Source: an uncultured Flavobacteriaceae bacterium
Lineage (GTDB): Bacteria; Bacteroidota; Bacteroidia; Flavobacteriales; Flavobacteriaceae
NCBI GenBank assembly: GCA_947311635.1
Contig: CAMZLD010000056.1
Span: 365 to 64,364, forward strand
Length of the DNA stretch: 64,000 nt
Direction: 5' to 3'
Shown here: in pieces, positions 1,299-60,908 of the stretch
Position numbering within the stretch: the first letter of the stretch is position 1
Layout: the number at the start of each line of letters is the position of its first letter
Notes under the pieces: generated by a model
The model's input: only the letters and a program-made list of their open reading frames with translations
Databases searched by the model: none
What the model was told of the DNA's origin: nothing
Made by a program: the position numbers and the translations under genes

Positions 1299-2358
1299 AT
1301 ATTTTTTTCCGAAGGGAGAAGTAATAAAACAACAAACTAATAAAAAACAAAACCCCTACAAGTTGATGCGATACACCGTAAAACAAAGGAATACCGCCTT
1401 TTATATTCAAGAGTGTTAAAATGCCTAAAATTACTTGTACGCTAACCAAGACCATTGCTATTTGAAGCCATTTTTTTGAAAGCGTAAGAACAGAATTTCT
1501 ATTCTTAACAAATAGAAAAAGCATACAAAAGAGTATTAAATAAGCTAACAAACGATGTGTAAATTGTACAAAAGCTGGTGCAAATAAAAAGGAGTCATAA
1601 TTTGTTAAATTATGTAATGTCCAATGTTGAGGTTGTTTTAAAACTTTCGGAATAAAGGTTCCGTTCATATCTGGCCATGACGGAAAATACAAACCAGCTT
1701 TCATGCCAGACATTAAACCTGCAAAGATTAGCTGTAAAAAAGTTAACCCTAAAATAACTTTAATGAGTGTTTTATTTTGATAAGTATTTGCTTTGTAATT
1801 ATAAACATCTGCAATGGTTTTTACCATGGCGGCAATACTTAAAGTCGCTAAAATAAAATGTAAAGTAAGTTTATAAGCATTAACCCAAGGTCTATTTATT
1901 AAACCACTTTTAACCATAATCCAACCTGCAGAAGCGGTTAAAGCTGTAAAAAAAATAACCAACCCTAGGCGTTTAATTAAATACCAATTAATTTGTTTTT
2001 TTAGTAAGAATAGTAGAAAAGGAATTAAAAAAACAAAACCTAAAACTCGTACCCAAAGACGGTGAAAATATTCCCAAAAAAAAATAAATTTAAAGTCTTT
2101 TAATTTAAAATCGGCATTGATTTTATGGTATTGAGGTGTTTGTTTATACATTTCAAAAGCATCATTCCATTGTGTTTTGTTTAATGGCGGAATGACACCG
2201 CTTACTATATCCCATTTTGTAATTGATAATCCAGAGCCTGTTAGCCTTGTAATACCGCCTAAAATAACTTGCCCAACAAGCATCACTAGACCAATAATGA
2301 GCCAAATTCTAATAATTTTTGTGTATTTATAATCTTTAAACATCTTTATTTTTTCCAC
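1297..2358 (-). CDS. ctaA: heme A synthase, COX15/CtaA family
   Basis: 353-aa polytopic membrane protein. The N-terminus (GGITRLTGSGLSITKWD, PPLN..QW..F..YK..PQY) and conserved His-containing helices are typical of COX15/CtaA. Confidence 0.85.
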   Translation of the reverse strand: MEKIKMFKDYKYTKIIRIWLIIGLVMLVGQVILGGITRLTGSGLSITKWDIVSGVIPPLNKTQWNDAFEMYKQTPQYHKINADFKLKDFKFIFFWEYFHRLWVRVLGFVFLIPFLLFLLKKQINWYLIKRLGLVIFFTALTASAGWIMVKSGLINRPWVNAYKLTLHFILATLSIAAMVKTIADVYNYKANTYQNKTLIKVILGLTFLQLIFAGLMSGMKAGLYFPSWPDMNGTFIPKVLKQPQHWTLHNLTNYDSFLFAPAFVQFTHRLLAYLILFCMLFLFVKNRNSVLTLSKKWLQIAMVLVSVQVILGILTLLNIKGGIPLFYGVSHQLVGVLFFISLLFYYFSLRKKI

Positions 2359-2906
2359 TTTAGGGTTTCAATCAAATGCATTACATCTTTTTCTATGTAT
2401 TTAATAGCTGGTTGAATAGAATCGTAGTTTGGTTTTACGTTAAAATACAAAGCTCCAGCCAAGACATGTTTAACGCTGTCTGTAACTCTAAACTGAAGAT
2501 TAGAAGCTGCATTTCCTTCTACATTATAGATCATTGCATAGACATTTTCCTTTTTGTTTTCAAACGGAATACTGTTAATTGCATCTGCTTTAATTGTGTG
2601 TTCTAAGGTGATTTTTTCTACTTCTTGAAGTACAATATTTAAATTGTTTTTTACATTTCTATACGTTAAGTGAAGGGTTGCATTTAATTTTGGGTATTTA
2701 ATTTTTGCCCAACAATTTTGCTGAATTTGAATGCTTGTTTTCTTCGAGATTTCAAAAATATAAGGACACGCGCTTTCTATTTTCTGATAGTTGGGTTTTT
2801 CATATTTTAATCTTAAAAAAGCTTTGGGTTTGGGTATTGTTTCTTGTTGGCAAGCAGTTACCACAAAAAATAGAACACAAAAAAATACACCTACAACTTT
2901 ATTCAT
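2346..2906 (-). CDS. gldD: gliding motility lipoprotein GldD
   Basis: 186-aa lipoprotein (VVTAC) immediately downstream of gldE and overlapping it by 8 nt, the canonical gldE-gldD arrangement. The size and N-terminal region fit GldD. Confidence 0.75.
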   Translation of the reverse strand: MNKVVGVFFCVLFFVVTACQQETIPKPKAFLRLKYEKPNYQKIESACPYIFEISKKTSIQIQQNCWAKIKYPKLNATLHLTYRNVKNNLNIVLQEVEKITLEHTIKADAINSIPFENKKENVYAMIYNVEGNAASNLQFRVTDSVKHVLAGALYFNVKPNYDSIQPAIKYIEKDVMHLIETLKWKK

Positions 2907-4221
2907 TCATAGTGATTTTTACTTGTTTAATACGTTTTCTATCAACAGACTCTATTGTGAATGTAAAATTTTTGAAATGTATTTTTTCTTTTTTCTTCGG
3001 AAATTTTCCATATAATTCTAATAAAAACCCTGCAATTGTTTCAGATTCGCCTTTGCTATCTTCAAACAGAGCTTCGTCTATTTGAAGGACTTTGCAAAAA
3101 TCTTTTAAGGTAGTTTTAGCTTCGAAGACGTAATTGTGAGCATCTAATTTAGAATAATTTAAATCATCTTCATCGTATTCATCTGTAATATCACCTACAA
3201 TTTCTTCTATAACATCTTGTAAGGTTACAATGCCGCTTGTGCCACCATATTCATCTACAACGACAGCAAGGTGATTTTTTTTACTTTTAAACTCTACAAG
3301 TAAATCGTCTAGTTTTTTGTTTTCGGGCACAAAATAAGGTTCTTTTAAAAGGCTATGCCAATCAAATTCCTTTTTATCTAAATGTGCTAATAAATCTTTG
3401 GTATAAATTACACCTACAATATTATCTATGTTTTCTTGATAAACAGGGTTTCTAGAAAATCCTTTTTTAGTTATTTTTTTAAGCATTTCAGAAAAATCTT
3501 CGTCTTTAGAGATTCCAAAAATTTCTGTACGCGGTGTCATGATTTGAATGGTTTCTGTGTTTCCGAAGTTAACAATACCTTCTAGTATTTTCTGTTCTTC
3601 TGTTGTTGTAGCATCTTCTGCTGTTAGCTCTAATGCTTTTGATAAATTTTCTACAGATAAATTGCTTTGTTTTGCGCCTAATTTTTTTTCAACAAAATTG
3701 GTTAACCCTAACAACGGAATGCTTAAAAAACTTAAAAATGAGGTGATATATTTTAAAGGAAACACCATAAAAGAAGCGAATTTTAATGAATTTCTTGTGG
3801 CGTATACTTTTGGTAAAACTTCACCAAACAATAAAATTAAAAAGGTAATTAGTACAACTTCTAATAAAAACCGAATGCTAACATTAAAGAAATATAAATT
3901 TAGGTTGTAGGTTAGATTGGCAAAGATTATTTCGCCTAATACGGCAAACAGCAGTACAATTAAAATATTGATAAAATTATTTGCAATTAAAATACTAGCC
4001 AATAATTTTTTTGGTTTATTAAGCAATGAAACTACATGCTGTTGAGCTTTTGATTTGCTTTGCGAAGCGGCATCTAAATCGGTTTGCGATAACGAAAAAA
4101 ACGCAACTTCTGCACCAGAAATTAATGCAGAACAAATTAAAAGTGTTATTAATAAAACACTGTAGATTACAACTGTAAAGTTAAAACTGAAAGTTAAAAA
4201 TATGACGGGTTCTGGATCCAA
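2899..4221 (-). CDS. gldE: gliding motility-associated protein GldE (DUF21-CBS pair-CorC/HlyC)
   Basis: 440 aa with an N-terminal four-TM DUF21 region, a CBS pair (IMTPRTEIF...NPVYQENIDNIVGVIYTKDLL) and a C-terminal CorC_HlyC region. It sits upstream of gldD. Confidence 0.85.
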   Translation of the reverse strand: MDPEPVIFLTFSFNFTVVIYSVLLITLLICSALISGAEVAFFSLSQTDLDAASQSKSKAQQHVVSLLNKPKKLLASILIANNFINILIVLLFAVLGEIIFANLTYNLNLYFFNVSIRFLLEVVLITFLILLFGEVLPKVYATRNSLKFASFMVFPLKYITSFLSFLSIPLLGLTNFVEKKLGAKQSNLSVENLSKALELTAEDATTTEEQKILEGIVNFGNTETIQIMTPRTEIFGISKDEDFSEMLKKITKKGFSRNPVYQENIDNIVGVIYTKDLLAHLDKKEFDWHSLLKEPYFVPENKKLDDLLVEFKSKKNHLAVVVDEYGGTSGIVTLQDVIEEIVGDITDEYDEDDLNYSKLDAHNYVFEAKTTLKDFCKVLQIDEALFEDSKGESETIAGFLLELYGKFPKKKEKIHFKNFTFTIESVDRKRIKQVKITMNE

Positions 4222-4695: not shown

Positions 4696-5745
4696 CTAAA
4701 AATTTAAATCCCTTTTATAAGACTGTAAAAAATTAGCAATTAAGACGGGTACTGCAAAGGTCTCAACTTTATTCCATGAGATTGTTTTTGCTGTGGTTGT
4801 ATTGGTTTTAAGAACCCAAAATTGAGTGTATAAGTGCTGATGTGACAATTTATGAATAATAGGTTTTTTATTATATAAATTTAGGCTGTATTTTTTCGGA
4901 AATAATTTTACAAAGTCATTCTCTTTTTCCAGTTGTTTTTTTGTTAAAATAGCAGTTGTTTCTATGAGCGGAAATTCATACAAATTTTGCCAAATACCTT
5001 TGCCTTTACGTTGCGTAAGGATGGTATTTTCTTCTAAAATTGTAGAGATGATGAAATTAAAATACCTCTTTCTTACTTTCGTTTTGTTAATTTTTACGGG
5101 TAGATCTTGCTGTAAATTTTCTTTAAAAGCAACACATGTATATTGTAAATCACAATCTGTGCATAGTGGATTTTGAGGTTTACAGACACGCGCTCCATAT
5201 TCCATAATGGCTTGGTTATGCGTTCCGGGATTGCTAACATCTAAATATTGTTGTGCTTGTTTTTTAAAAAGTTTGATTCCTTGAGAAGCGTTTATGGGTG
5301 TAAATATTCCGAAGAATCTTGCAAGAACACGATAAACATTGCCATCAACAACAGCTGTTGGCTCATTATAACAAATAGAAGCAATGGCAGATGCGGTATA
5401 ATCACCAACACCTTTAAGAGCAAGAAGGGTTTTGTAATCTTTTGGAAATTGACCATTTAATTCGTTTACAATATATTGCGCTGATGCGTGTAAGTTTCTA
5501 GCTCTAGAATAATACCCTAAACCTTGCCAAAGTTTTAAAACAGTTTCTTGTTTTGCAGCAGCGAGGTCAAAAACTGTTGGAAAATGTTTAACAAATGATA
5601 GGTAATACGTAATTCCTTGATCTATTCTTGTTTGCTGTAGAATAATTTCTGAAAGCCAAATTTTATAAGGATCTTTGGTTTGCCGCCAAGGTAAATCTCT
5701 TTTATTTTGTAAATACCAGTTTGTGAGTGTTTTAGAAAATAGCAT
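4696..5745 (-). CDS. mutY: A/G-specific adenine glycosylase MutY
   Basis: HhH-GPD region (LPWRQTKDPYKIWLSEIILQQTR...LKGVGDYTA), 4Fe-4S Cys cluster (CKPQNPLCTDCDLQYTC) and a NUDIX-like C-terminus. I chose the start at the internal ATG MLFSKTL; the ORF track extends to 5775. Confidence 0.9.
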   Translation of the reverse strand: MLFSKTLTNWYLQNKRDLPWRQTKDPYKIWLSEIILQQTRIDQGITYYLSFVKHFPTVFDLAAAKQETVLKLWQGLGYYSRARNLHASAQYIVNELNGQFPKDYKTLLALKGVGDYTASAIASICYNEPTAVVDGNVYRVLARFFGIFTPINASQGIKLFKKQAQQYLDVSNPGTHNQAIMEYGARVCKPQNPLCTDCDLQYTCVAFKENLQQDLPVKINKTKVRKRYFNFIISTILEENTILTQRKGKGIWQNLYEFPLIETTAILTKKQLEKENDFVKLFPKKYSLNLYNKKPIIHKLSHQHLYTQFWVLKTNTTTAKTISWNKVETFAVPVLIANFLQSYKRDLNF

Positions 5746-5827
5746 AATTGCAATATTACAAATGCAATAATACACTATTATTCTATTAAAAATTAGGATT
5801 TTACTTTATCAAGAAGATTTAATACGT

Positions 5828-8032: not shown

Positions 8033-10222
8033 TTAAAACCAAAAACCAATATTAAAATACCAGTTTTTGTTAACATCTGGAGACCAGGTGTAATGAAATT
8101 GTACAGGACCAATAAAGGTTTCAAGCCCATAGCCTAATGCCAATCCATATTTTGTGTTGTCAAAAATTTTACCTTGATTATAAATGTCATTTGTAGATCG
8201 TGCTACATGCACACCTGCTTCTAAATAATTTTTATTGAAAATTTCATAACGAATATCAAAAGTTGATTTTAAAAAAGAACTATTATTTAAATCAGCAATG
8301 TCATACCCGTGTAAAGGAATAAAATTAGCTATATAATTACCTCCAAAACCCCCAAGACTATAATCTAATACAGGGTTGTTGTTAACACCAATAGTGAAAC
8401 CAGCCGAAGTAGTAAAGAGAGCAGTTAATTTGTTTGAAAAAGAATGTGCATAACCCACTTTACCTTGTAGCTGAGAAAACGAATAAAAATCATTTCTGTA
8501 ATTTGAAGAAAGTAAATACCATCTAAAATTAACATCAACTAAAACCCCAGATGTTTGAAAATAAGGTTTGTCATAAGTGTCTATTTTTAAATAAGAGATA
8601 AAATTTAAGTAATTAGACTTATCTAAGTAGTTTTTTATTTCATTGTTGGTAATTGACACTGTTTTTGTAAAAACTCTCAAAAGCTTGTGCTCTAATCCAA
8701 CACCTAATGCATAACGTCTTCCGAAGACCGTTTGAAAATATATTTGATTGCTCAAGTCTTGGTAGTCCACCTTATCCTTATTGGTTGCAGCAGCATCAAA
8801 GCTCATGGTTGCATTAAAAGCATTATAGGTTGAGTGTATACCGTAACTCCAATAAAAACCATTATCTATAAAGTAATTTAATTGATACCGTATATTATCA
8901 CCAACAACAAGGTCTGTCGATAAAATATCATTTTTAGAAAGTATATGCTTTGTTGTAAAATTTAAAAGTACCGCCGTTTTATATAAATCATCATAATGTG
9001 GCGAGATTTTAAATTGAGATGTAATAGGGTTTTCTTTTAAACGCAAACTTATTTGGTGCTTATTAAATTGATGCAAGATACTTTGAAAATTACCTGTGGC
9101 AGAAAGATTGTTAATACCTTCTATGAAACTTTCATAAGAAATAGAATCATTGGTTTTAATATTCAATTTTCCCATGATGTATGCTCTTGTGTAATCTTTG
9201 TTTCCAGAAATTCCAATAGAATTTACTAGCCTTTTTCCAGAATATTGTAAAGCAACATGTTGTTTTTTTTGTTGAATACCTAATTGTCTTTGTTTGTTTG
9301 CTAGCGCAGTAAAAGATGTTTGTAATTCATTTGCTGCAACTTCACCTTTTTCTATTATTTCGTCTAATTTATCAAAAGAAACCACAGAATAATTATAAAT
9401 ATCTGGATGCATATACAAATGTACTTTTTCATTTTTTTCTTTATTATCTTTATACATCTGAAAGCTTACAATCTGGTTAACAATATCAACAGCAGAATTT
9501 AAATCTTCTTTTTTACTTAAATCTCCTTGTACATCAACGCCAATAATAATATCTGCTCCCATGGCAATCATTTCGTCTATCGGAAAATTATTTACAATGC
9601 CGCCATCAGACAGTAGCATGCCATCATATTCTACAGGTTCTAATAACGTAGGGAAAGCGCCACTCATTCTAACAGCTTCTGGCAAAAAACCTTTATTTAA
9701 AAGTACTGGTTTACCGGTTTCTAAATTTGTAGCCAAACAATAAAACGGAATTGGAAGTTTTGAAAAATCATGAATATGATGTACGTGTCGTGTTAATTTA
9801 GTTAATAAGTCAAATACTCGCTGTCCAGAAGAAAGCGCTTTAGGTAACCCAACTTTTCTTTTGTGAATTGGTAATGAAATGGCATATTTTTCGCCATTTA
9901 CTTTTTCGTAATAAGGTTTAGATTTTCTAGGAAACTCATCTTTCATAACCTCATTAAAGTCAAAGGTATGCACAATAGAATCTATTTGTGTGGCGCTGTA
10001 TCCAGAGGCATATAAAGAACCAATAATTGCACCCATACTTGTGCCGCCAACATAATCTATTTGTACACCACTTTTTTCTAAGACCTTTAACACGCCAACG
10101 TGCGCAAGACCTTTTGCTCCACCACCACTTAAAACCAAGCCAACTTTTAATTTTTTAGGAGTCGTTTCTTGAGAAAAAAGGATCAAAGGAAACAATAAGA
10201 GAAAAAAAACTATTTTTTGCAT
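8033..10222 (-). CDS. patatin-like phospholipase fused to an Omp85/BamA-type beta-barrel (PlpD-like)
   Basis: Signal peptide, oxyanion GGGAKG, lipase serine GTSMG and a DGG catalytic Asp region. The C-terminal ~400 aa are rich in alternating aromatic beta-strands and end in ...FNIGFWF. I set the start at MQKIVFF (10222), because the track ORF (to 10285) would overlap uvrC. Confidence 0.8.
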   Translation of the reverse strand: MQKIVFFLLLFPLILFSQETTPKKLKVGLVLSGGGAKGLAHVGVLKVLEKSGVQIDYVGGTSMGAIIGSLYASGYSATQIDSIVHTFDFNEVMKDEFPRKSKPYYEKVNGEKYAISLPIHKRKVGLPKALSSGQRVFDLLTKLTRHVHHIHDFSKLPIPFYCLATNLETGKPVLLNKGFLPEAVRMSGAFPTLLEPVEYDGMLLSDGGIVNNFPIDEMIAMGADIIIGVDVQGDLSKKEDLNSAVDIVNQIVSFQMYKDNKEKNEKVHLYMHPDIYNYSVVSFDKLDEIIEKGEVAANELQTSFTALANKQRQLGIQQKKQHVALQYSGKRLVNSIGISGNKDYTRAYIMGKLNIKTNDSISYESFIEGINNLSATGNFQSILHQFNKHQISLRLKENPITSQFKISPHYDDLYKTAVLLNFTTKHILSKNDILSTDLVVGDNIRYQLNYFIDNGFYWSYGIHSTYNAFNATMSFDAAATNKDKVDYQDLSNQIYFQTVFGRRYALGVGLEHKLLRVFTKTVSITNNEIKNYLDKSNYLNFISYLKIDTYDKPYFQTSGVLVDVNFRWYLLSSNYRNDFYSFSQLQGKVGYAHSFSNKLTALFTTSAGFTIGVNNNPVLDYSLGGFGGNYIANFIPLHGYDIADLNNSSFLKSTFDIRYEIFNKNYLEAGVHVARSTNDIYNQGKIFDNTKYGLALGYGLETFIGPVQFHYTWSPDVNKNWYFNIGFWF

Positions 10223-10235
10223 GAATCTAAATGTC

Positions 10236-12026
10236 TTACTGTTTATGATAGTAATTATAAATTTTGGTTGCGCGATGCTCTCCAATAATTTTGCTTAAAT
10301 CTTGTTGATTTGCTTCAGAAATTCGTTTTGCTGATTTAAAATAACGTAATAAAGTTACAATAGTTTGCTCACCAATTCCAGAAATTTGTGTTAATTCTGT
10401 AGTAATGGCACTTTTACTGCGTTTGTTTCTATGAAATGTAATGCCAAAACGATGTGCTTCGTTTCGTAATTGTTGAATAATCTTAAGGGTTTCAGACTTT
10501 TTATCTAAATATAAAGGTATTTTGTCTTCTGGATAATAAATTTCTTCCAATCGTTTGGCAATACCAATAATGGCAATTTTTTTCCGAAGCCCTAAGGCAT
10601 CTAAACTTTTTAATGCAGAAGATAATTGACCTTTACCGCCATCTATCACTATAAGTTGCGGAAAGCCTTGTCCTTCTTCTTGCAAACGTTTGTAGCGTCT
10701 ATAAACAACCTCTTCCATTGATGCAAAGTCATCTGGACCAATCACTGTTTTTATATTAAAATGCCGGTAGTCTTTTTTACTTGGTTTTCCATTTTTAAAA
10801 ACAACACAAGCTGCAACAGGGTGTGTGCCTTGTATGTTTGAGTTATCAAAACATTCTATCCAACGGGGTTGTACCGTTAATCTTAAATCTTTTTGCATTT
10901 GAGACATGATACGATTGGTGTGTCTGTCTGGATCTACTATTTGTAAATGCTTAAATCGCTCTTGTCTGTAGTATTTGGCATTTCTAAGTGATAAGTCTAC
11001 AATTCGTTTTTTATCACCTAATTTTGGAATGGTAATTTTTAAATTTTCGCCTAGATCTAACTTAAAAATAGAATAAATCTCTTTAGATTGTGAGTGGAAG
11101 CGTTGTCTAATTTCAACAATAGCAAGTTCTAATAGTTCTTTGTCTGTTTCGTCAAGTTTTTTCTTTACTTCTGTTGTGTGAGATTGCACAATGGCACCGT
11201 TAGAAATTTTTAAAAAGTTAATATAACCATAACTTTCGTCAGAAATGATTGAAAATACATCTACATTATTGATTGAAGGATTTACAATGGTAGATTTTGC
11301 TTGGTAGTTTTCTAATAAGGCAAGTTTTTCTTTGATGTGTTGGGCTTCTTCAAATTTCATTTCAGAAGCAAAAAAGAGCATTTTTTCTTTTAATAGTTTT
11401 ATAGACTCTTTAAAATTTCCTTTTATAATATTTTTGATAGCAATAATATCTTGGTTGTAATCTTCTTCGGTTTGTAGATCTTCACAAGCGCCTTTGCAAT
11501 TGCCTAAATGATATTCTAGGCAAACTTTATATTTTTTGTTTTCAATGTTTTTTTGACTTAAATCATATTTGCATGTACGTAATTTGTAAATTTCTTTTAT
11601 TAAATCTAGCAATACTTTTACGGTTTTAACAGAAGTAAAAGGGCCAAAATATGCTGATCCGTCTTTAATGATGTTTCGTGTTAAAAACACTCTGGAAAAG
11701 CGTTCTTTTTTAATACAAATCCAAGGGTAGGTTTTGTCATCTTTTAACATGACATTATACTTGGGTTGGTGTTTTTTTATAAGGTTGTTTTCTAGCAATA
11801 AAGCATCGGTTTCTGTCTCTACAACAATGTGTTTAATGCTTGCAATTTTTTTAACTAAAATACGTGTTTTACCGTTGGGTTGGTTTTTGTTAAAATAAGA
11901 TGCAACACGTTTTTTTAAATTTTTTGCTTTACCAATATACAAAAGGATTTCGTTTTTATCGTAATATTGATAAACGCCTGGACTGTTTGGTAAGGTTTGT
12001 ATTTGAAGTTTTAATGCTGTTGGCAT
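10236..12026 (-). CDS. uvrC: excinuclease ABC subunit C
   Basis: GIY-YIG N-terminus (GVYQYYDKNEILLYIGKAKNLKKRVASYF), a UVR domain, an RNase H-like endonuclease domain and a C-terminal (HhH)2 (ISGIGEQT). Confidence 0.95.
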   Translation of the reverse strand: MPTALKLQIQTLPNSPGVYQYYDKNEILLYIGKAKNLKKRVASYFNKNQPNGKTRILVKKIASIKHIVVETETDALLLENNLIKKHQPKYNVMLKDDKTYPWICIKKERFSRVFLTRNIIKDGSAYFGPFTSVKTVKVLLDLIKEIYKLRTCKYDLSQKNIENKKYKVCLEYHLGNCKGACEDLQTEEDYNQDIIAIKNIIKGNFKESIKLLKEKMLFFASEMKFEEAQHIKEKLALLENYQAKSTIVNPSINNVDVFSIISDESYGYINFLKISNGAIVQSHTTEVKKKLDETDKELLELAIVEIRQRFHSQSKEIYSIFKLDLGENLKITIPKLGDKKRIVDLSLRNAKYYRQERFKHLQIVDPDRHTNRIMSQMQKDLRLTVQPRWIECFDNSNIQGTHPVAACVVFKNGKPSKKDYRHFNIKTVIGPDDFASMEEVVYRRYKRLQEEGQGFPQLIVIDGGKGQLSSALKSLDALGLRKKIAIIGIAKRLEEIYYPEDKIPLYLDKKSETLKIIQQLRNEAHRFGITFHRNKRSKSAITTELTQISGIGEQTIVTLLRYFKSAKRISEANQQDLSKIIGEHRATKIYNYYHKQ

Positions 12027-12688: not shown

Positions 12689-13348
12689 TTATTGTGTTTT
12701 AAAAGTCTTTAACAATACATTAGCATAAATGGTCTTGATTTTTAAGCTATTTATAGGTTTTTGATAATCCATTTGTAGTTTTTTTAAGAACACTGTATTT
12801 TTTTTATCAAAGGTTGTTGTAATTCTGGCTTTGCTATTTTCAATATTAATAATGCTGTTTAACAAAGCGCATTCTATAAAACCTGCCAAAACCGTAATGT
12901 TACTTTTACCTTTAAAGCCATTAATGTGCACATTGCTATTTTCTGCTTCTAGGGTAATGTTTCCGTAAAAATTTGAAGTGTAAAAATTCCCTTTTTTATA
13001 ATGTAAGTATATGTTTTTCTGCTTCGGAATTGAAATTTCAAAGCTTGGATAAAAAGGTTGTTCTTTACAAATTTTGTTTATTTCCTTTAGGTTTTCTACT
13101 TCTATTTTTTTTGAAAGGATAAAGATTTCATTATTTTTTTCTTCTATAGTTAGTAGGTATTTTGAAAACGGATAAGTGTTCATTTTCACAGCAATAATTC
13201 CTTCGGTATTATGAACTATATTGATAGCATCTGCTTGCTCTAATTCAATATTAATTGTAGTAGCATTACTTGTAAGCGTTTTTGTGATGGTGTTTTGAGA
13301 CCAAGAGAAGCTTGCTAAAAAAAATATTATAAGGCTACTTTTTTTCAT
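12689..13348 (-). CDS. exported hypothetical protein
   Basis: 219-aa ORF with an N-terminal signal peptide (LIIFFLASFSWSQ). No motif recognised. Confidence 0.5.
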   Translation of the reverse strand: MKKSSLIIFFLASFSWSQNTITKTLTSNATTINIELEQADAINIVHNTEGIIAVKMNTYPFSKYLLTIEEKNNEIFILSKKIEVENLKEINKICKEQPFYPSFEISIPKQKNIYLHYKKGNFYTSNFYGNITLEAENSNVHINGFKGKSNITVLAGFIECALLNSIINIENSKARITTTFDKKNTVFLKKLQMDYQKPINSLKIKTIYANVLLKTFKTQ

Positions 13349-13373
13349 AAAAAAAAGCTTCCGAAGAAGCTTT
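13349..13373 (-). terminator. intrinsic terminator with C(UUCG)G tetraloop
   Basis: The minus strand reads AAGCTTC-TTCG-GAAGCTT followed by T8, directly after the dksA-like stop. The loop is one copy of the over-represented octamer. Confidence 0.75.
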
Positions 13374-13764: not shown

Positions 13765-16700
13765 TTAAATTTTTTGAATGTGTAATTTGGTTTGTATTGA
13801 ATCAAACACAATTTCTATACCATTTTTTAAATGTTCTTTAACAGAAACTTCTGTTGCTAAGGTTTCTGTTTTTATATATGTTTTATTTTGAGCTATTGCT
13901 TTTTCTATTGTTTTGTCTTTTTGTAGCGTTACTACAATTTTATCTGTTATTTCAAAGCCAGAGTCTTTACGTAAATTTTGTATTCTGTTTACAAGCTCTC
14001 TTGCAATACCTTCGTTTTTTAAATCTTCGGTCAATGCTATGTCTAACGCAACAGTAATACCATTTGCATTGGCAACCAACCAACCTTCTATGTCTTGCGA
14101 TGTTATTTCTACATCTGAAAGCTCTAAAGTAATAATTTTTTGGTTAATATCAAGTTCTAAGAAGCCATTTTGTTCTATTTTCTGAATATCTTCTGAAGTA
14201 AATTTACCAACAGCATTTGCTATCTGTTTCATGTCCTTTCCAAAACGTGGCCCTAAGGTTTTAAAGTTCGGTTTTATTTGCTTCACTAAAATATCTGAAG
14301 CATCTTCTAACAATTCAATTTCTTTAATGTTAACCTCGTGTTTTATTAAATCTGCAACCGCCAAAATTTCTTCTTTTTGTTGCGCATTATCAATCGGAAT
14401 CATTATTTTTTGTAATGGCTGACGTACTTTAATCTTTTCTTTAGCTCTTAATGATAATACCAAAGAAGAAATGATTTGTGCATTTTCCATTTTACGTTCT
14501 AAAGATTTATCTACAAAGCTTTCATTATAAACAGGAAAATCTGCTAAGTGTATGCTTTCAAAAGTTTCTTTTTTAGTAACACTATTTAAATCTAAATACA
14601 GACGATCCATAAAGAAAGGAGCAATTGGTGCGCTTAATTTTGCTACGGTTTCCATACAAGTATATAGTGTTTGATAGGCAGAAATTTTATCTTGCTGGTA
14701 ATCGCCTTTCCAAAAACGTCTTCTGCTTAATCTAACATACCAATTACTTAAATAATCTTGTGTAAAGTTAGAAATAGCTCTTGCTGCTTTTGTTGGTTCG
14801 TATGCTGCATAAAAGGAATCAACATTTTTTATAAGTGTATGCAACTCACTTAAAACCCAACGGTCTAATTCTGGTCTTTCTGCTAATGCAATGTCTTTTT
14901 CAGAATACTTAAATCCATCTAAATTTGTATATAATGAGAAGAAAGAGTAGGTATTGTATAGCGTTCCGAAGAATTTACGCTTTACCTCTTCTATACCTGC
15001 AACATCAAATTTTAGATTGTCCCAAGGGTTTGCATTGGCAATCATATACCAGCGAGTAGCATCGGCACCATAGGTTGCTAGAGTTTTAAAAGGATCTGTG
15101 GCATTGCCCAAACGCTTTGACATTTTAAGTCCGTCCTTGTCTAAAACAAGCCCGTTAGAAACAACATTTTTATAAGCAATATCATCAAAAATCATCGTTG
15201 CAATGGCATGTAATGTGTAAAACCAACCTCTTGTTTGATCTACACCTTCTGCTATAAAGTCTGCTTTTCTCCAAGTTTTTTCTACCAACTCTTTGTTTTG
15301 AAATGGATAATGCCATTGAGCGTAAGGCATACTTCCAGAATCAAACCAAACATCTATCAAATCACTTTCACGATGCATTGGTTTTCCTGTTTCAGAAACC
15401 AATATAATTTCATCTACAATGTTTTTGTGTAAATCAATTTTTGCGTAGTTTTCTTCGGAATTGTTTCCGACTTCAAAACTTTCAAAGATGTCTTTTTTTA
15501 GGACCCCAGCAGCAACTGCTTTTGCCATTTCGGACTTTAATGTTGCTACAGAACCAATACAAATTTCTTCTTTTCCGTCTTCTGTGCGCCATATTGGCAA
15601 AGGAATTCCCCAATAACGTGATCGTGATAAATTCCAATCATTGGCATTTGCCAGCCAATTTCCGAAGCGACCTTCGCCAGTACTTTTAGGTTTCCAGTTT
15701 ATGGTTTTGTTTAACTCGTGCATTCTACCCTTAATATCGGTCACTTTTATAAACCAAGAATCTAAAGGATAGTATAAAATTGGTTTGTCTGTACGCCAGC
15801 AATTTGGATAACTATGTTTGTGTTTTTCAACTTTAAAAGCTTTGTTTTCTTCTTTTAATTGAATGGCAATCTCAACATCAACAGATCTTTCTGGTGCCTC
15901 ACTTTCATTATAATATTCGTTTTTTACATATTTGCCAGCATATTCTTTCATTTCTGGTCTAAAACGCCCTTGTAAATCTACCAAAGGCACCAAGTTACCA
16001 TCGTTGTCTTTTACCAACATTGGTGGTATTTCTGGTGAGGCTTGTTTGGCAACCATAGCATCATCTTGACCAAAAGTTGGTGCTGTATGCACAATACCCG
16101 TTCCGTCTTCTGTAGTTACAAAATCTCCAGCAATTACACGGAATGCATTTTCTTGCTTATCGTTTGGTAATGTGTAAGGCATTAATTGTTCATAACGAAT
16201 ATCAATTAAATCTTTTCCTTTGAATTCTTTTACAATAAAAAAAGGTATTTTTTTATCTCCCGATTTGTAGTCTAATAATGCTGGTTTTTCTTCTACTTGA
16301 TTAAATTTTCCAGCAAATTGTTTGCCGACTAAATTTTTAGCTAAAATCACATTTATTGGCTTAAATGTGTATTGATTATAGGTTTCTACCAACACATAAT
16401 CAATTTTATTTCCAACGGTTAGTGCGGTATTACTTGGTAATGTCCAAGGGGTTGTTGTCCAAGCAAGGAAGTAAATAGCACCTTCGTTTTGTAAAAAATC
16501 TGGAAGTGTTTTTGCTTTCGCTTTAAATTGCGCAACAACAGTGGTGTCTGTTACGTCTTGGTATGTTCCTGGCTGGTTAAGTTCGTGTGAGCTTAAACCT
16601 GTACCTGCTTTAGGTGAATAAGGCTGAATGGTGTAGCCTTTGTACATTAATTTTTTATCGTAAATCTGCTTAAGTAACCACCAAACGCTTTCCATGTATT

Positions 16701-17635: not shown

Positions 17636-17654
17636 GAATTAAAAAGACAAGACA

Positions 17655-25264: not shown

Positions 25265-25834
25265 ATGAAACGTATCGTGGTGCTTGCTTCTGGTTCTGGT
25301 AGCAATGCAGAAAATATTATAAAGTACTTTCAAAAGAATGCCACTATTAAGATTACGCATGTGCTTTCTAACAAGAAGGATGCCAAAGTTTTAGAGAAGG
25401 CTAAAAAACACAATATCAACAGTTTGTATTTCAACACCTCTTTTTTAACTTCTGAAGAAGGCTTGCTTTCTTTTTTAAAAGAGCACGCAGATTATATTGT
25501 GTTAGCGGGTTTTTTACAACGCATTCCTAAAATTATTGTAAGTACTTTTCCGAATAAAATTATAAACATTCATCCTGCTTTGTTACCAAAATATGGCGGT
25601 AAAGGAATGTATGGCATGCATGTTCATAAAGCAGTTGTTGAGAATAAGGAGACTAAAACAGGCATGACCATTCATTTTGTAAATGAAAATTATGATGAAG
25701 GCGCTATTATTTTTCAGCAAAGCGTTCCAATATTACCAAATGATACTCCAAAAGTTGTTGCAGTAAAAGTACTGGCATTAGAACACGCTTTTTTTCCGAA
25801 GATTATCGAAAAAGTTATCAATGAGCAACGATAA
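25265..25834 (+). CDS. purN: phosphoribosylglycinamide formyltransferase
   Basis: RIVVLASGSGSNAE...VLAGF...INIHPALLPKYGG.G signatures. ATG at 25265 (or 25253); the track starts at the TTG at 25229. Confidence 0.92.
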   Translation: MKRIVVLASGSGSNAENIIKYFQKNATIKITHVLSNKKDAKVLEKAKKHNINSLYFNTSFLTSEEGLLSFLKEHADYIVLAGFLQRIPKIIVSTFPNKIINIHPALLPKYGGKGMYGMHVHKAVVENKETKTGMTIHFVNENYDEGAIIFQQSVPILPNDTPKVVAVKVLALEHAFFPKIIEKVINEQR

Positions 25835-33915: not shown

Positions 33916-33926
33916 AATAGAAAAAA

Positions 33927-44986: not shown

Positions 44987-45949
44987 TTAACTACCAATAT
45001 GAAATAGGGCATCGCCCATGTTTATAATCGGAAAATTATTAACAGCAATAACATAGCCATCATGAGGCGCTTTGACTTTAAAATTTGTTTCGCCATAGGT
45101 ATCCATAATAAGTCCTAAAACCTGTCCTTTTTGTACTTTTTCACCATTTTTAATTGTACTACTAAAAAGGCCCGCAATGTTTGCACGCACCCATTTTCGT
45201 TTAGAAATTTGTATGCTTTTTGTTGCTGTAGTAATGTTAACATCTTTATTTATCATATTAAAATAACGTAAGATGTTTAAAGTGCCATTAATGCCTTTTT
45301 CTATAGAAATAGGGTTTAACCGTAAAGATTCTCCACCTTCAAAAACTAAAATAGGAATGTTGTTTTTAAAACATTCATTCCGAAATGATTTCGGAATTAA
45401 TTTAGAACCAAACATAAAAGGAGCATTAAACAGGGTGGCAAGTGCTTTGGCGCGATTATCTTGTGGTGTGTAACGCACTTGTGGGTAATTACAGCGCTGT
45501 TCTCCGCCTGTATGAAAATCAATTCCGAAGTCTACATTTAATACCAATTCTTTCATTAAATAATATGCCATTCTACTTGCTAAAGAGCCTTTTTTAGAAC
45601 CCGGAAAACTACGATTTACATCTTTTCCGTGCATATCTCTAGACAAATTTAAGAAACCAAAAACATTTAAAAGCGGCACAACTATTACACATCCTCTATA
45701 AATTTTATAGGATTTATCAATTAACATTCTTCTAATAAGCTCAATGCTATTTACCTCATCACCATGTAAACCGCCTTGTAATAAGACTGTTGGTCCAGCT
45801 TCTTTTCCGTTAAAAACATAAACAGGTATTTCTATCAAGGTACCAGTTGGTAATCTATCAATAGGGATTTTGATGAGTTTAGATTCGTCCAAACCTATTT
45901 TATGTCCACGTATTTCTACAACTTCGTTTTTATAATTTGTTTTAAACAT
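44987..45949 (-). CDS. succinylglutamate desuccinylase/aspartoacylase (AstE/AspA, M14-like) family protein
   Basis: Zn-ligand region GGLHGDEVNSIE, a later DFHTGG motif and a C-terminal beta-barrel tail. Its start overlaps the rimK stop by 8 nt. Confidence 0.8.
   Translation of the reverse strand: MFKTNYKNEVVEIRGHKIGLDESKLIKIPIDRLPTGTLIEIPVYVFNGKEAGPTVLLQGGLHGDEVNSIELIRRMLIDKSYKIYRGCVIVVPLLNVFGFLNLSRDMHGKDVNRSFPGSKKGSLASRMAYYLMKELVLNVDFGIDFHTGGEQRCNYPQVRYTPQDNRAKALATLFNAPFMFGSKLIPKSFRNECFKNNIPILVFEGGESLRLNPISIEKGINGTLNILRYFNMINKDVNITTATKSIQISKRKWVRANIAGLFSSTIKNGEKVQKGQVLGLIMDTYGETNFKVKAPHDGYVIAVNNFPIINMGDALFHIGS
45377..45397. repeat. perfect 21-bp palindrome ATTCCGAAAT-G-ATTTCGGAAT inside the AstE-like CDS
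   Basis: Read directly from the sequence: two inverted copies of the TTCCGAA heptamer, encoding IPKSFRN on the minus strand. Confidence 0.95.
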
Positions 45950-47649: not shown

Positions 47650-49665
47650 ATGGCAACATTAGATTCTAAAGTCCCAAAAGGTCCTTTAAAAGACAAATGG
47701 ACAACTTATAAAGATAAAATTAACTTGGTAAATCCAGCCAATAAACGTCATATAGACATCATTGTAATTGGTACAGGTTTGGCAGGAGGTTCTGCAGCTG
47801 CAACTTTAGCAGAATTAGGCTATAATGTAAAAGCATTTGCTTATCAAGATTCACCAAGACGTGCACATTCTATTGCAGCGCAAGGAGGCATTAATGCCGC
47901 CAAAAACTATCAAGGAGATGGAGATTCTAACTACCGCTTATTTTACGATACCGTAAAAGGAGGTGATTATAGATCAAGAGAAGCTAACGTGTATCGTTTG
48001 GCAGAGGTTTCGGGAAATATCATTGATCAATGTGTAGCACAAGGAGTCCCTTTTGCACGTGATTATGGAGGATTACTTGACAATCGTTCGTTTGGTGGTG
48101 TATTGGTTTCAAGAACATTTTATGCCAAAGGACAAACAGGACAACAATTATTGTTAGGAGCATATTCTGCAATGAACCGTCAAATTGCACGTGGAAAAAT
48201 TACCATGCACAACCGACATGAAATGTTAGATGTTGTGATTGTTGATGGAAAAGCAAGAGGTATCATTGCCCGTAATTTAATTACCGGTGAAATAGAAAGA
48301 CATTCTGCACACGCTGTAGTTGTTGCTTCTGGTGGTTACGGAAACGTTTATTTTTTATCAACAAACGCTATGGGTTCTAATGCCACTGCTGCTTGGAAAA
48401 TTCATAAAAAAGGAGCTTATTTTGCAAATCCTTGTTATACGCAAATTCACCCAACATGTATTCCAAGAAGTGGAGACTATCAATCTAAATTAACTTTGAT
48501 GTCAGAATCATTACGAAATGATGGTCGTATTTGGGTGCCAAAAAGCATGGAAGATGTGATGGCTATTAGAGAAGGAAGCAAAAAACCAACCGATTTGTCA
48601 GAAGAAGAACGCGATTATTACCTAGAACGCCGTTATCCTGCCTTCGGAAATTTGGTGCCGCGTGATGTAGCTTCAAGAGCAGCAAAAGAACGTTGTGATG
48701 TGGGTTATGGAGTAAATGCTACAGGCGAAGCAGTATATTTAGATTTTAAATCTGCAATAAATAGATATGGAAAAGAACAAGCTTTATTACATGGTGATAG
48801 AAACCCTTCAGAAGCAAAAATTATAGAATTAGGGGAAAAAGTTATCGAAGAAAAATACGGAAACTTATTTCAGATGTATGAAAAGATTGTTGATGAAAAT
48901 CCATATAAAACACCAATGATGATTTATCCTGCAACGCATTACACAATGGGTGGTGTTTGGGTTGATTATAATTTAATGACTACCGTACCTGGTTTGTATT
49001 GTATTGGAGAAGCAAACTTTTCAGATCATGGCGCAAACCGTTTAGGAGCATCTGCATTAATGCAAGGTTTAGCAGATGGTTACTTTGTGCTGCCTTATAC
49101 TATTGGTGATTATTTAGCTGACGATATTAGAACAGGAGAAATTTCAACAGATACTGCTGAATTTGAACAAGCAGAAAAAGCCGTAAAAGAACGCTTAGAT
49201 TTCTTTATCAATAATAAAGGAACTCATTCTGTAGATTATTTCCATAAGAAACTTGGAAAAGTAATGTGGGACAAAGTAGGGATGGCACGTAATGAAAAAC
49301 ATTTAAAAGAAGCCATTTCTGAAATTAAAGAAATAAGAGAAGATTTTTGGAAAAATGTAAAAGTGCCAGGAACTTTAAATGAATTTAATCAAGAATTAGA
49401 AAAAGCAGGAAGAGTAGCAGACTTTTTAGAATTAGGCGAGTTATTTGCCTTAGATGCTTTAAATCGTAAAGAATCTTGTGGAGGTCATTTTAGAGAAGAA
49501 TCTGTAGAACAAGATGGCCCTCAAAAAGGAGAAGCTTTACGCGATGATGTAAATTATAAATATGTTGCTGCATGGGAATACAAAGGAGAACCAAGCGAAG
49601 CAATATTACATAAAGAAGAGTTAGAATTTAACGATATAGAGTTAAAAACGAGGAGTTATAAGTAG
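47650..49665 (+). CDS. sdhA: succinate dehydrogenase/fumarate reductase flavoprotein subunit
   Basis: FAD dinucleotide fold ([13 protein letters not shown]), the covalent-FAD His region ([14 protein letters not shown]) and HYTMGG; 671 aa. Confidence 0.95.
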
Positions 49666-49780: not shown

Positions 49781-50524
49781 ATGAATCTTACACTAAAAAT
49801 CTGGAGACAAAAAGGACCAAATGATAAAGGTCAGATGGTTGATTATAAAGTAACTGATATTTCAGAGCACATGTCATTTCTAGAAATGATGGATGTATTG
49901 AATGAGCAATTAGTAAACGCTGGTGAAGAACCTGTTGCTTTTGATCATGATTGTAGAGAAGGAATCTGTGGTATGTGCTCTATGTACATTAACGGTGAAG
50001 CACATGGTCCAGACAGAGGCATTACAACATGTCAGTTACACATGCGTATGTTTAAAGACGGTGATACGATTACTATTGAACCATTTAGAGCTAATGCTTT
50101 TCCTGTAATCAAAGATTTAGTGGTAGATAGAATGGCATTTGAACGCATTCAGCAAGCAGGAGGTTTTATTAGTGTTAACACCTCTGGTAATACGCAAGAT
50201 GCCAATTCTATTCCTATTTCTAAACACGCAGCAGACCAAGCTATGGATGCCGCTACATGTATTGGTTGTGGTGCATGTGTTGCAACCTGTAAAAATTCTA
50301 GTGCCATGTTATTTGTATCTGCCAAAGTAAGTCAATATGCCTTGTTGCCTCAAGGGCAAGTAGAAGCTACAGACAGAGTTTTAAACATGGTAGCACAAAT
50401 GGATTTAGAAGGCTTCGGAAATTGTACCAATACGGGCGCTTGCGAGATTGAATGTCCTAAAGGAATTTCTTTAGAAAACATTGCACGTATGAATCGTGAA
50501 TTGATGAAAGCAAGTGTAAAGTAA
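49781..50524 (+). CDS. sdhB: succinate dehydrogenase/fumarate reductase iron-sulfur subunit
   Basis: 2Fe-2S (CREGICGMC), 4Fe-4S ([11 protein letters not shown]) and 3Fe-4S ([12 protein letters not shown]) Cys clusters. Confidence 0.95.
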
Positions 50525-52803: not shown

Positions 52804-53568
52804 ATGAAAAACAAATTAGAAGTAGCGATTATTCAATCTGATATTGTTTGGGAAAACCCGATTGAAAACAGAAAAAACTTTACAGATAAGATAACTGCCA
52901 TTTCTTCGGAAATTGACCTCATTGTGTTGCCAGAGATGTTTACTACAGGTTTTACCATGAATGCTTCAAAGTTTTCTGAAACTATGCAAGGTAAAACTGT
53001 TTTATGGATGCAAGAAATGGCATTAAAAAAACAATGTGCCCTAGTAGGAAGTTGTATTATTTATGAAGAAGAAAAGTACTACAATAGGTTGTTTTTTGTA
53101 AAACCATCTGGAAAAATTGCACATTATGACAAACATCATTTATTTACTTTGGCAGGTGAACACAAAGTATATAGTAAAGGTTTAAACCGCCTTTTAGTTG
53201 ATTTTAGAGGATGGAAAATTTGTCCGTTAATTTGTTACGATCTTCGTTTTCCTAGATGGAGTAGAAACACAGTTAATTATGATTTACTTCTTTATATTGC
53301 CAGTTGGCCAAAAGCTAGAATATCTGCGTGGAATACCTTATTAAAAGCACGTGCTATCGAAAATATGACGTATTGTATTGGGGTAAATAGAATAGGCGAA
53401 GATAAGAATGCATACGAGTATTCTGGAAATTCAGTTGCTTTAGATTACTTCGGAAATGAACTAGTAACCACAACAGCGTATAAAGAAGAAATTAGCTTTG
53501 TAACTTTAAATAAAAAAAGCCAAGATACTGCTCGAAATAAGTTTTCTTTTTTAAAAGACCAAGATTAA
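52804..53568 (+). CDS. carbon-nitrogen hydrolase (nitrilase superfamily, omega-amidase YafV-like)
   Basis: Glu (LPEMF), Lys (YDKHHLF) and Cys (ICYDLRFP) catalytic-triad regions; 254 aa. Confidence 0.85.
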   Translation: MKNKLEVAIIQSDIVWENPIENRKNFTDKITAISSEIDLIVLPEMFTTGFTMNASKFSETMQGKTVLWMQEMALKKQCALVGSCIIYEEEKYYNRLFFVKPSGKIAHYDKHHLFTLAGEHKVYSKGLNRLLVDFRGWKICPLICYDLRFPRWSRNTVNYDLLLYIASWPKARISAWNTLLKARAIENMTYCIGVNRIGEDKNAYEYSGNSVALDYFGNELVTTTAYKEEISFVTLNKKSQDTARNKFSFLKDQD

Positions 53569-60081: not shown

Positions 60082-60104
60082 AAAAAAGTTTTCTTTTAAT
60101 TAAT

Positions 60105-60908
60105 CTAAATTTGTGTTGTGTAAAACTCAATATATTCATCAGAAAATTCTTCTAAATTTTTATAAGCAAAACTAGGCTTGTCTTGAGTTTTAAGGAAATC
60201 TTCTAATTCTTTTGGTAGCTTTTCACTGCCAATCATAAAGGCATCTGAATTTGCTACTGCACTTTTTAAAAGATTGATATAGTTAGGTGATTTGAGTTGT
60301 TCTATTTTTGATTCGGCAATATTATCGTATTTAATCTTTTCAATAATTTTTTTATTTAAAGATCCTTCAAAACCATTTTCATAAACAGATGTTACTATCT
60401 TACTGTTTGTAAATAAAGGGTCATCTCCATAATATTCTTTCAAATACAACGGAAGCAATGAAGCCAACCAGCCATGTACGTGAATAATATCTGGCGACCA
60501 ATTTAATTTTTTTACAGTTTCTACTACGCCTTTAGCAAAAAAGATGGCTCTTTCATCATTATCGTCAAACAATTTATCATCTTCGTCTGTAAAAATTGCC
60601 TTTCTTTTAAAATATTCGTCATTATCAATAAAGTATACTTGCATTCTTTCCTTCGGAATGGAAGCAACTTTAATAATCAAAGGCATATCCATGTCGTTAA
60701 TTATTAAATTCATTCCAGAAAGACGAATTACTTCGTGTAATTGATGTCTTCGTTCATTAATGACACCAAATCGAGGCATAAATATACGTGTTTGCCCTCC
60801 GTTTTTATGTACTTTTTTTGCCAATTCGAATGCTGTTGTTCCTATTTCGGTTTCTGGTAAATACGGCACAACTTCCGAAGAAACAAATAATACTCTCTTA
60901 TCTTTCAT
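60105..60908 (-). CDS. short glycogen/starch-synthase-like protein (N-terminal GT5 half only)
   Basis: 267 aa with a KRVLFVSSEVVPY... N-terminus like GlgA. The length covers only one Rossmann-like half, and the C-terminal nucleotide-sugar-binding domain is missing. Confidence 0.7.
   Translation of the reverse strand: MKDKRVLFVSSEVVPYLPETEIGTTAFELAKKVHKNGGQTRIFMPRFGVINERRHQLHEVIRLSGMNLIINDMDMPLIIKVASIPKERMQVYFIDNDEYFKRKAIFTDEDDKLFDDNDERAIFFAKGVVETVKKLNWSPDIIHVHGWLASLLPLYLKEYYGDDPLFTNSKIVTSVYENGFEGSLNKKIIEKIKYDNIAESKIEQLKSPNYINLLKSAVANSDAFMIGSEKLPKELEDFLKTQDKPSFAYKNLEEFSDEYIEFYTTQI

Follow-up and report, generated by a model that had tools for sequence, protein, structure and literature searches.

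Hyper-abundant short genomic words are known from few groups, namely the Neisseriaceae, the Pasteurellaceae and the cyanobacteria, and each of them has opened a view on DNA exchange or chromosome organisation. A word of this kind is described here from an uncultured marine Flavobacteriaceae bacterium, in a contiguous stretch of 64 kb (positions 365 to 64,364 of contig CAMZLD010000056.1, GenBank assembly GCA_947311635.1) that is analysed at its full length and called the window from here on. It is the octamer TTCCGAAG (reverse complement CTTCGGAA), and it belongs to this small class of words, extending it to a further phylum and showing an unusual phylogenetic pattern. The word itself was not found in the literature searched, which also held no uptake sequence or word resembling the highly iterated palindromes (HIP) of cyanobacteria for any member of the Bacteroidota.

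The first systems to be compared are the DNA uptake sequences (DUS) of the Neisseriaceae, with the core GCCGTCTGAA, and the uptake signal sequences (USS) of the Pasteurellaceae (AAGTGCGGT / ACAAGCGGT). These are short, asymmetric words, over-represented tens of fold or more, that lie in both orientations, mostly within genes and in several reading frames, and that have a sharp core with weak flanks. They are shared clade-wide, shape codon choice and, at weakly constrained positions, protein sequence, sit occasionally in terminator hairpins, and are thought to accumulate by molecular drive. The flavobacterial word resembles them in all these respects, molecular drive being the process proposed for it as well. 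The differences lie in the size and density of DUS and USS (9-12 bp and about one per kb, against 8 bp and some 0.4-0.6 per kb for the flavobacterial word), in the lack of inverted terminator pairs here, and in the distribution, since, unlike in the Neisseriaceae and Pasteurellaceae, one and the same word, without dialects, appears in two lineages that are not sisters and is not enriched in the genera between them. Moreover, uptake sequences go with biased uptake by competent cells and a sequence-specific receptor (ComP in Neisseria), which are postulated for the flavobacterial word.

The second comparison is with HIP1 (GCGATCGC) and the alternate highly iterated palindromes, which are also over-represented octamers, spread over every frame of coding DNA and unevenly distributed among related lineages, with sites retained above control words, and whose function is unresolved after decades. 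The over-representation of HIP1, which is conserved and found in every reading frame, amounts to 15-300 fold, and it has been argued to be under selection and to contribute to chromosome structure (PMC5861425). It has been tied to cognate methyltransferases (PMC4390886), its accumulation in cyanobacteria being proposed to involve CGATCG/GATC methyltransferases, and methylated HIP1 boosts the efficiency of natural transformation (bioRxiv 10.1101/2024.09.10.611283). Given this link with transformation, uptake words and HIP1-like words may not be fully separate kinds. HIP1 is a perfect palindrome that holds the sites of two orphan methyltransferases, whereas the flavobacterial word lacks this symmetry and has no known cognate enzyme.

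Count, specificity and coding context of the word

An exact search of the whole window finds the octamer 26 times, 14 times on the + strand and 12 on the - strand. A first-pass annotation of this DNA, made by eye, had arrived at the same 26 copies in the same proportion, and 24 of its coordinates are exact, the other two (33827 and 35395) being each 10 too high, with true starts at 33817 and 35385. It had also put the GC content at about one third and the expectation from composition at about one copy, and computation agrees on both points: the window has 32.1% GC, dinucleotide-preserving shuffles give a mean of 0.94 copies (maximum 5), and Markov models predict 0.8-1.1 copies at orders 0-2 and 2.1 at order 3. 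The word is thus over-represented about 20-30 fold and ranks first among all octamers under Markov orders 0-3. A maximal-order Markov ranking fails to flag it, because its own sub-words are inflated by the octamer itself; for this reason lower orders and codon-aware nulls were used instead.

The specificity of the word is sharp. TTCCGAA is followed by G in 26 cases, by A in 5, by T in 3 and never by C, exactly the preference read off at first pass; all 26 occurrences of TCCGAAG in the window are preceded by T, and single-mismatch variants, at 0-2.6 fold relative to synonymous permutation, show little excess. The flanking preferences are weak, a pyrimidine at -1 and A or T at +1: the base at -1 is T in 14 window copies, A in 8, C in 3 and G in 1, and in the second enriched clade (described below) it is a pyrimidine in 40 of 44 copies, with A or T at +1. 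Beyond one base on either side the flanks of the window copies are unrelated, which argues against a mobile or repeat element, and a dispersed repeat such as a repetitive extragenic palindrome (REP) or a miniature inverted-repeat transposable element (MITE) is ruled out, there being no shared extended flanking sequence or structure. The spacing of the copies is Poisson-like (coefficient of variation, CV, 0.99), and the copy-free gaps that had been remarked on are not significant, a largest gap of at least 10.1 kb having P = 0.26.

All but one of the 26 copies (25, the remaining one being intergenic) lie in open reading frames (ORFs) of ordinary housekeeping genes, among them those for isoleucyl-tRNA synthetase (IleRS), UvrC, a MutY-like protein, pyruvate kinase and SufBDS as well as the CDSs at 47650-50524. 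They are read in five contexts, Phe-Gly (12), [Ile/Phe]-Pro-Lys (8), Leu-Arg-Lys (2), Ser-Ser-Glu (2) and Asn-Ser-Glu-Glu (1), and stand 16:9 relative to the sense strand, two tallies on which the first-pass annotation proves exact. The codons that the word calls for are rare in the window, TTC serving for 10% of Phe, AAG for 11% of Lys, CCG for 11% of Pro, CGG for 3% of Arg and TCC for 2% of Ser, so that the rarity previously presumed for CCG and AAG is borne out. Against the 25 copies in coding sequences (CDSs), permutation of synonymous codons within genes gives a mean of 1.2 (maximum 5 in 1000 permutations), codon sampling conditioned on the preceding base a mean of 1.5 (maximum 6), and a codon-pair model, deliberately overfitted by being trained on the same genes, a mean of 5.5 (maximum 13). 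About 20 or more copies in a codon-aware shuffle had been named beforehand as the outcome that would undo the observation; none of the nulls reached that number and the enrichment survives. No other octamer deviates as far from the permutation null (z = 21 for the word), the next in line being its own overlapping shifts. The proteins of the window offer 125 places at which the word is synonymously possible, and 25 of them are filled, the xxC-TTC-GGA-Axx frame alone accounting for 12 out of 28. The unrelated flanks, the five frames, the rare codons and the amino-acid replacements described in the next section together indicate that the cause acts on DNA, and the DNA-level cause suggested earlier, as opposed to peptide or codon usage, is supported by the contexts, the codon-aware nulls and the permutation ranking. 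The observation is therefore real and strong, and it is unaccounted for by anything ordinary.

Distribution, turnover and a phage counterpart

The IleRS gene was used to collect 80 Flavobacteriaceae loci of about 23 kb each (L001-L080). In the pool of these loci, from which IleRS itself was left out, the word reaches only 2-fold its expected count and stands in 279th place, so the excess is not family-wide. In the same pool all TNCCGAAG words are 2.2-2.9 fold over expectation, which looks like a family-wide codon-context preference at Phe-Gly and provides the baseline against which the octamer has to be judged. The locus that stands out among the 80, that of Subsaximicrobium wynnwilliamsii, has 11 copies over 23 kb, and the word is its top octamer. 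Following its FtsX gene to relatives leads to a second Subsaximicrobium assembly (10 copies in 20.9 kb), a metagenome-assembled genome (MAG) from ENA (14 copies), Sediminibacter sp. Hel_I_10 (11 copies) with a near-identical ENA contig (9 copies), and one more MAG (8 copies). The enriched genomes of this second clade, Subsaximicrobium/Sediminibacter, have 39-41% GC and 0.4-0.7 copies per kb, the word is the top octamer in every one sampled, and synonymous permutation gives P < 0.002 for each member. Psychroserpens mesophilus is moderately enriched (5 copies against 0.34 under synonymous permutation). The relatives that FtsX places next, Psychroserpens ponticola and Gelidibacter mesophilus, have one copy each, and synonymous permutation detects no enrichment in P. 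ponticola, Gelidibacter or Bizionia. The window is not sister to the Subsaximicrobium clade according to IleRS, UvrC, patatin, LspA and DksA. Its own lineage has a single known relative, a 4.5-kb contig (L081) with a SufD 90% identical, which carries one copy matching the one at 30399 of the window and lacks that at 28590.

Comparison with orthologs reveals how the copies come about: each of them arose in place by point substitution, synonymous (to rare codons) where the protein permits and amino-acid-changing at weakly constrained residues. In UvrC the window has a Lys in place of the Gly that 41 of 45 orthologs keep (Leu-Arg-Gly), and in IleRS, where Asn takes the place of Met, all 7 orthologs with Asn, from two clades, carry the exact octamer with the rare TCC codon for Ser. 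Elsewhere the residues are conserved and the codons alone differ, Ile-Pro-Lys, for example, being written TTCCAAAA in relatives. Site creation is ongoing in at least two Flavobacteriaceae lineages. The four genomes compared in the second clade have 28 distinct sites, 19 of which are private to one genome, 7 common to two, 2 to three and none to all four. The orthologous near-octamer and octamer states of this clade are separated by 30 transitions and 31 transversions, G/C-to-A/T changes included, and the protein also differs in 24 of 40 such comparisons. Octamers are retained pairwise in 30% of cases and arbitrary 8-mer windows in 14%, with a nominal P of 7e-5 from comparisons that are non-independent. 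Sites are thus made continually, by any type of substitution and at some cost to the protein, and are kept somewhat longer than neutral sequence. A small case within this clade is the 5' end of the leucyl-tRNA synthetase (LeuRS) gene (L018 475-563, L082 9015-9103, L084 9256-9345), where three octamer copies fall within 90 bases in a Ser-Ser-Glu run and the position of the exact word among the three varies between genomes.

The word has a counterpart outside the Flavobacteriaceae. In a scan of 2.9 million IMG/VR contigs for two octamer copies within 30 bases, whose matches are mostly chance pairs, a family of myovirus contigs (46-58% GC) carries the 9-mer palindrome CTTCSGAAG at 1-2.4 per kb, 50-70 fold over expectation. 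The dense contigs are L101, L275, L216, L264, L201, L139/L170, L287, L283 and L254 from IMG/VR and L308 from JGI 3300042934. L101 (55% GC) has 27 octamers in 13.3 kb, 24 of them as the 9-mer palindrome, L275 has 21 copies in 7.8 kb, L216 has 12 in 4.2 kb, L264 has 21 in 9.9 kb, and L201 has 18 in 14 kb together with 20 of CTTCGAAG. L101, L275, L216, L264, L201 and L139/L170 encode myovirus tail, baseplate and lysis proteins, and L308, a 105-kb contig found via its tail sheath, has 35 copies in 21 kb, an SNF2 helicase of 2302 aa and a Phi812-type tail tube. The nearest named homologs of their tail sheaths are from Paenibacillus, and in INPHARED the nearest phage to L101 is too distant to name a host. 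Judging from this gene content, the dense contigs are probably large virulent phages of another phylum. One of them, L283, also carries CTTCNGAAG.

Possible causes of the excess

What, then, makes and keeps so many copies of one word in particular lineages? Tentatively, the most likely cause of the hyper-abundance of (Y)TTCCGAAG, which is confined to those lineages, is a molecular drive of the DUS type. The DNA-binding component of a natural-transformation machinery would prefer double-stranded fragments carrying the word; alleles that gain it would enter other cells and recombine there at a higher rate than alleles lacking it; and copies would build up across the recombining core genome until mutation and the cost in codons and protein balance the gain, at about 0.4-0.6 per kb. 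This explanation is ranked first because the anatomy of the word is DUS-like and because the family includes competent species. The anatomy comprises a sharp asymmetric core, weak flanks, both orientations, mostly intragenic positions in the cheapest frames, rare codons, replacements at weakly constrained residues, clade-wide inheritance and turnover. As for competence, some members of the family (Riemerella) are naturally competent, and Riemerella columbina shows a preference for its own DNA, no uptake sequence having yet been identified there and a naive k-mer search having given only poly-A words (PMC7965970). For competent Flavobacteriaceae, in which preference for own DNA is described and the recognition signal has been sought and not found (PMC7965970), the word offers a concrete candidate signal; and since it is equally strong in the culturable Subsaximicrobium wynnwilliamsii and Sediminibacter sp. 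Hel_I_10, the uptake hypothesis is directly testable. A likeness to uptake sequences had already been seen at first pass, and it holds for the anatomy, but not for the arrangement at terminators, where inverted pairs are missing, nor for the distribution, in which the identical word occurs in two non-sister lineages.

Several observations weigh against uptake as the cause. Known uptake sequences are family-wide, with drifting dialects, whereas here an identical word is enriched in at least two non-sister lineages with unenriched genera between them, and Bizionia, Winogradskyella, Algibacter, Gelidibacter and Psychroserpens ponticola show neither the word nor an alternative dialect at the loci sampled. 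No competence gene is recognisable among the 62 ORFs of the window. Intergenic DNA shows no enrichment, holding 1 of 26 copies of the window and 5 of 43 copies of the second clade, inverted-repeat pairs are absent from terminators, and the intergenic copies that were folded share no hairpin. The AT-rich islet at 17357-20796, the one probable island, has 0 of 7 possible sites filled, whereas elsewhere in the window the word occupies 25 of 118; with P about 0.15, this depletion is not significant. Finally, there are the phages. Temperate phages are known to accumulate the uptake sequences of their hosts (PMC6776037), but the dense contigs look virulent and of another phylum, so a process other than transformation can also make the same word hyper-abundant, coincidence being possible in a word-specific search of 2.9 million contigs. 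This lowers the confidence in uptake. If uptake is not the cause, the word would be a second HIP1-like puzzle, with an asymmetric form, sites made at the expense of proteins and a phage counterpart, which is arguably more interesting. In practical terms, the word might serve as a lineage marker for binning and host assignment, and as a candidate element for the genetic tractability of marine flavobacteria.

A doubtful but serious alternative is a process resembling that of HIP1, in which a sequence-specific modifying or nicking/repair enzyme, maybe encoded on a transferable gene, would recognise TTCCGAAG or the core TTCSGAA and would bias repair or recombination, or need many sites, so that its recognition word accumulates in the host genome. 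Mobile modification genes are expected to give a patchy, non-sister distribution like this one; the core has CpG at its centre and is nearly a palindrome, a typical form for methyltransferase sites; octamer sites survive at twice the rate of arbitrary 8-mers; and in the unrelated phage contigs of 46-58% GC the word is hyper-abundant as the palindrome CTTCSGAAG, a form closer to HIP1 than the flavobacterial one. In the Flavobacteriaceae, however, the word is asymmetric: the C at -1 needed for a full palindrome occurs in 3 of the 26 copies of the window, which speaks against the half-site idea of the first-pass annotation at least in the window, and in 14 of 44 copies of the second clade, the final G being obligatory. 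The patch-repair variant, also put forward there, is not supported. Footprints of Dcm/Vsr (CCWGG excess, CTAG deficit) are comparable in being a DNA-level bias at a short sequence with a methylatable C, but they are less than 2-fold, arise by T-to-C correction only and deplete the T-variants, whereas the flavobacterial word is about 25-fold in excess, its T-variants are not depleted (TTCTGAAG 13 against 6.2 expected, CTTTGGAA 3 against 4.0), and transversions contribute as much as transitions (31 and 30), with GC-to-AT changes also making the word. Simple very-short-patch repair, that is, a drive from T:G to C:G, is thereby ruled out. No methyltransferase or Vsr-type gene was seen in the window, of which a Pfam scan covered part. 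A DUF559 insert (PF04480; presumably a restriction-endonuclease/Vsr-like fold) in the LeuRS of some second-clade genomes does not track the enrichment, since L084, the densest, has no insert. The inserted LeuRS genes, at L082 6105-9596, L086 6343-9835 (called as two genes), L087 6416-9835 and L088 6310-9825, encode 1139-1171 aa, and those of L084, Psychroserpens ponticola and Gelidibacter, without the insert, 1003-1043 aa.

Selection for the word as such is likewise open to considerable doubt. Here an abundant chromosomal protein would bind the word and many dispersed copies would be favoured, the candidates being a factor of the nucleoid or condensin type and a nuclease or defence system of the host that is attenuated by the word as a 'self' mark, which phages would mimic. 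The sharp 8-bp specificity, the survival of sites beyond that of arbitrary 8-mers and the density of the word in phage genomes, such as is expected if phages imitate a protective motif of their host, are all consistent with it, and HIP1 has been argued to be under selection and to contribute to chromosome structure (PMC5861425). Against this, 19 of the 28 second-clade sites are private to one genome, spacing is random (CV 0.99), the lack of polarity makes a single-strand reader of the RecBCD/AddAB type unlikely, and the dense phages appear to be Firmicutes-type myoviruses and not phages of Flavobacteriaceae. In addition, the selective value of each of some 1500-2000 sites would presumably be too small to outweigh the costs in rare codons and amino acids, paid at 20-40% of the possible positions.

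The phage result also motivates a further reading, which is quite unlikely: the two Flavobacteriaceae lineages and the phage family would reflect one transferable, sequence-specific system that writes or selects its own word in the genomes that carry it. Such a system would differ from an uptake receptor, from the known HIP methyltransferase pair and from Chi, and, if real, it would be a new kind of genome-wide sequence drive.

Far less probable is a polar chromosome motif, either of the Chi kind, read by RecBCD/AddAB, or of the KOPS kind that orients FtsK, whose excess would follow the direction in which the chromosome is replicated. Chi (GCTGGTGG in E. coli) and the KOPS/AIMS motifs are similar in being octamers among the most over-represented and in occurring once per few kb, and the flavobacterial word, an 8-mer at one per 2-2.5 kb, is the top-ranked octamer, as Chi is in E. 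coli. But those motifs are strongly co-oriented with replication, with an expected skew of 3:1 for Chi and more than 9:1 for KOPS, whereas the flavobacterial word is without polarity in any sample: it stands at 14:12 in the contiguous 64 kb, as the balance noted at first pass implied, and at 21:22 between strands (20:18 relative to the sense strand) in the four second-clade genomes pooled from the same syntenic neighbourhood. This type of reading is therefore close to refuted.

A by-product of protein sequence, codon usage or codon-pair context is excluded, for although all TNCCGAAG words (C-TTC-GGN-A) are 2-3 fold in excess family-wide and TTCCGAAG is itself 2-fold enriched in the 80 pooled loci, the 25 copies observed face 1.2-1.5 under the codon-aware nulls and 5.5 (maximum 13) under the overfitted codon-pair null, the excess is present in both orientations and five frames, and close relatives with the same proteins have no copies.

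Individual copies and accompanying observations

Copies read as Phe-Gly are found at 3561..3568 (+; AAC-TTC-GGA-AAC, Asn-Phe-Gly-Asn) in the CDS at 2899-4221 (-), at 5307..5314 (+; Phe-Phe-Gly-Ile) in the MutY-like CDS at 4696-5775 (-), and at 8719..8726 (+; Val-Phe-Gly-Arg) in the patatin-like CDS at 8033-10285 (-), where the residues of orthologs differ (LFRK, LFAQ and others). IleRS (13765-17166, -) has two of them: one at 14964..14971 (+; Phe-Phe-Gly-Thr), with invariant residues and with CTTCGGAA in 18 of 80 orthologs too, and one at 15660..15667 (+; Arg-Phe-Gly-Asn), whose residues are invariant in 80 orthologs and where the octamer is not among the six commonest ortholog words, the commonest being TTTTGGAA. 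Further along are the copies at 27438..27445 (+; Leu-Phe-Gly-Lys) in the SufS-like CDS at 26932-28146 (-), at 28590..28597 (-; Pro-Phe-Gly-Asn) in the CDS at 28222-29553 (+), where the nearest relative, L081, reads CTCCGTAA, and at 35385..35392 (+; Phe-Phe-Gly-Ile) in the di-haem cytochrome c peroxidase CDS at 34354-35418 (-). That at 45523..45530 (+; Asp-Phe-Gly-Ile) lies in the CDS at 44987-45949 (-), whose orthologs have DYCL, DLIL, DYAI and others, and the last three are at 48642..48649 (-; Ala-Phe-Gly-Asn; CDS 47650-49665, +), 50413..50420 (-; Gly-Phe-Gly-Asn; CDS 49781-50524, +) and 53448..53455 (-; Tyr-Phe-Gly-Asn; CDS 52804-53568, +).

Ile-Pro-Lys is the reading of the copies at 13022..13029 (-; CDS 12689-13348, -), 28550..28557 (+; CDS 28222-29553, +), 30399..30406 (-; SufD, 29556-30869, -), which is kept in L081 (position 1859), and 60651..60658 (-; CDS 60105-60908, -), where 7 orthologs keep Ile-Pro-Lys by means of TTCCAAAA, TTCCTAAA and similar words. 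Phe-Pro-Lys is encoded at 2995..3002 (-; TTT-CCG-AAG; CDS 2899-4221, -), the single ortholog found reading TTCCAAAA, at 21881..21888 (-; pyruvate kinase, 20798-22225, -), at 25794..25801 (+; CDS 25229-25834, +) and at 33817..33824 (-; SufB-like CDS 32467-33951, -). The two Leu-Arg-Lys copies are at 1307..1314 (+; CTT-CGG-AAA; CDS 1297-2358, -) and 10582..10589 (+; UvrC, 10236-12026, -; Leu-Arg-Gly in 41 of 45 orthologs), and the two Ser-Ser-Glu copies at 52904..52911 (-; CDS 52804-53568, +) and 60873..60880 (+; CDS 60105-60908, -), the orthologs of the latter keeping Ser-Ser-Glu by way of CATCTGAA or CCTCGGAA. Asn-Ser-Glu-Glu (AAT-TCC-GAA-GAA) is read at 15453..15460 (-) in IleRS, most orthologs of which have Met-Ser-Glu-x. 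The sole intergenic copy, at 13359..13366 (+), forms the loop and the top of the stem of a hairpin at 13349-13373 on the - strand, AAAGCUUC-UUCG-GAAGCUUU plus a U-run, which resembles an intrinsic terminator, and the UUCG-loop terminator annotated there at first pass is thus confirmed.

Other features of the window can be mentioned briefly. Two one-off copies of the word form a perfect inverted repeat, ATTCCGAAA-TGA-TTTCGGAAT, at 45377-45397 in the CDS at 44987-45949 (-). The AT-rich islet (28-30% GC) between IleRS and pyruvate kinase contains genes for an XRE-type helix-turn-helix (HTH) protein (17655-17954) and for a 601-aa type IV modification-dependent restriction enzyme of the GmrSD family (18053-19858). 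In the suf cluster, between sufD and sufC, there is a gene (30893-31291) of the 23S rRNA-intervening-sequence protein family (PF05635).

Over-represented words of other kinds appear among the 80 loci. A 'moderate' enrichment of the octamer in L029, L038, L044 and L059, and the possible dialects TACCGAAG (L069) and TCCCGAAG (L023 and L078), proved not to be robust when set against the 2-3 fold excess of TNCCGAAG words throughout the family and were discarded; TACCGAAG has 7 copies in L069 (OZ238266.1), with 0.39 expected, and TCCCGAAG has 6-7 copies in L023 and L078. In L016 and L030, CCATCATT has 23-29 copies and GGTGATGG 44-65, which is probably highly repetitive coding sequence in Polaribacter/Tenacibaculum loci. 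Another lineage-specific over-represented word is found in L034 (a Flavobacteriaceae MAG, CAVQTP010000007.1), where CGCGAAAG/CTTTCGCG occurs 8-11 times in 23 kb, with 0.5 expected, accompanied by GCGAAAGC and TTCGCGAA, the former, contained in the word, being presumably a stable DNA mini-hairpin.

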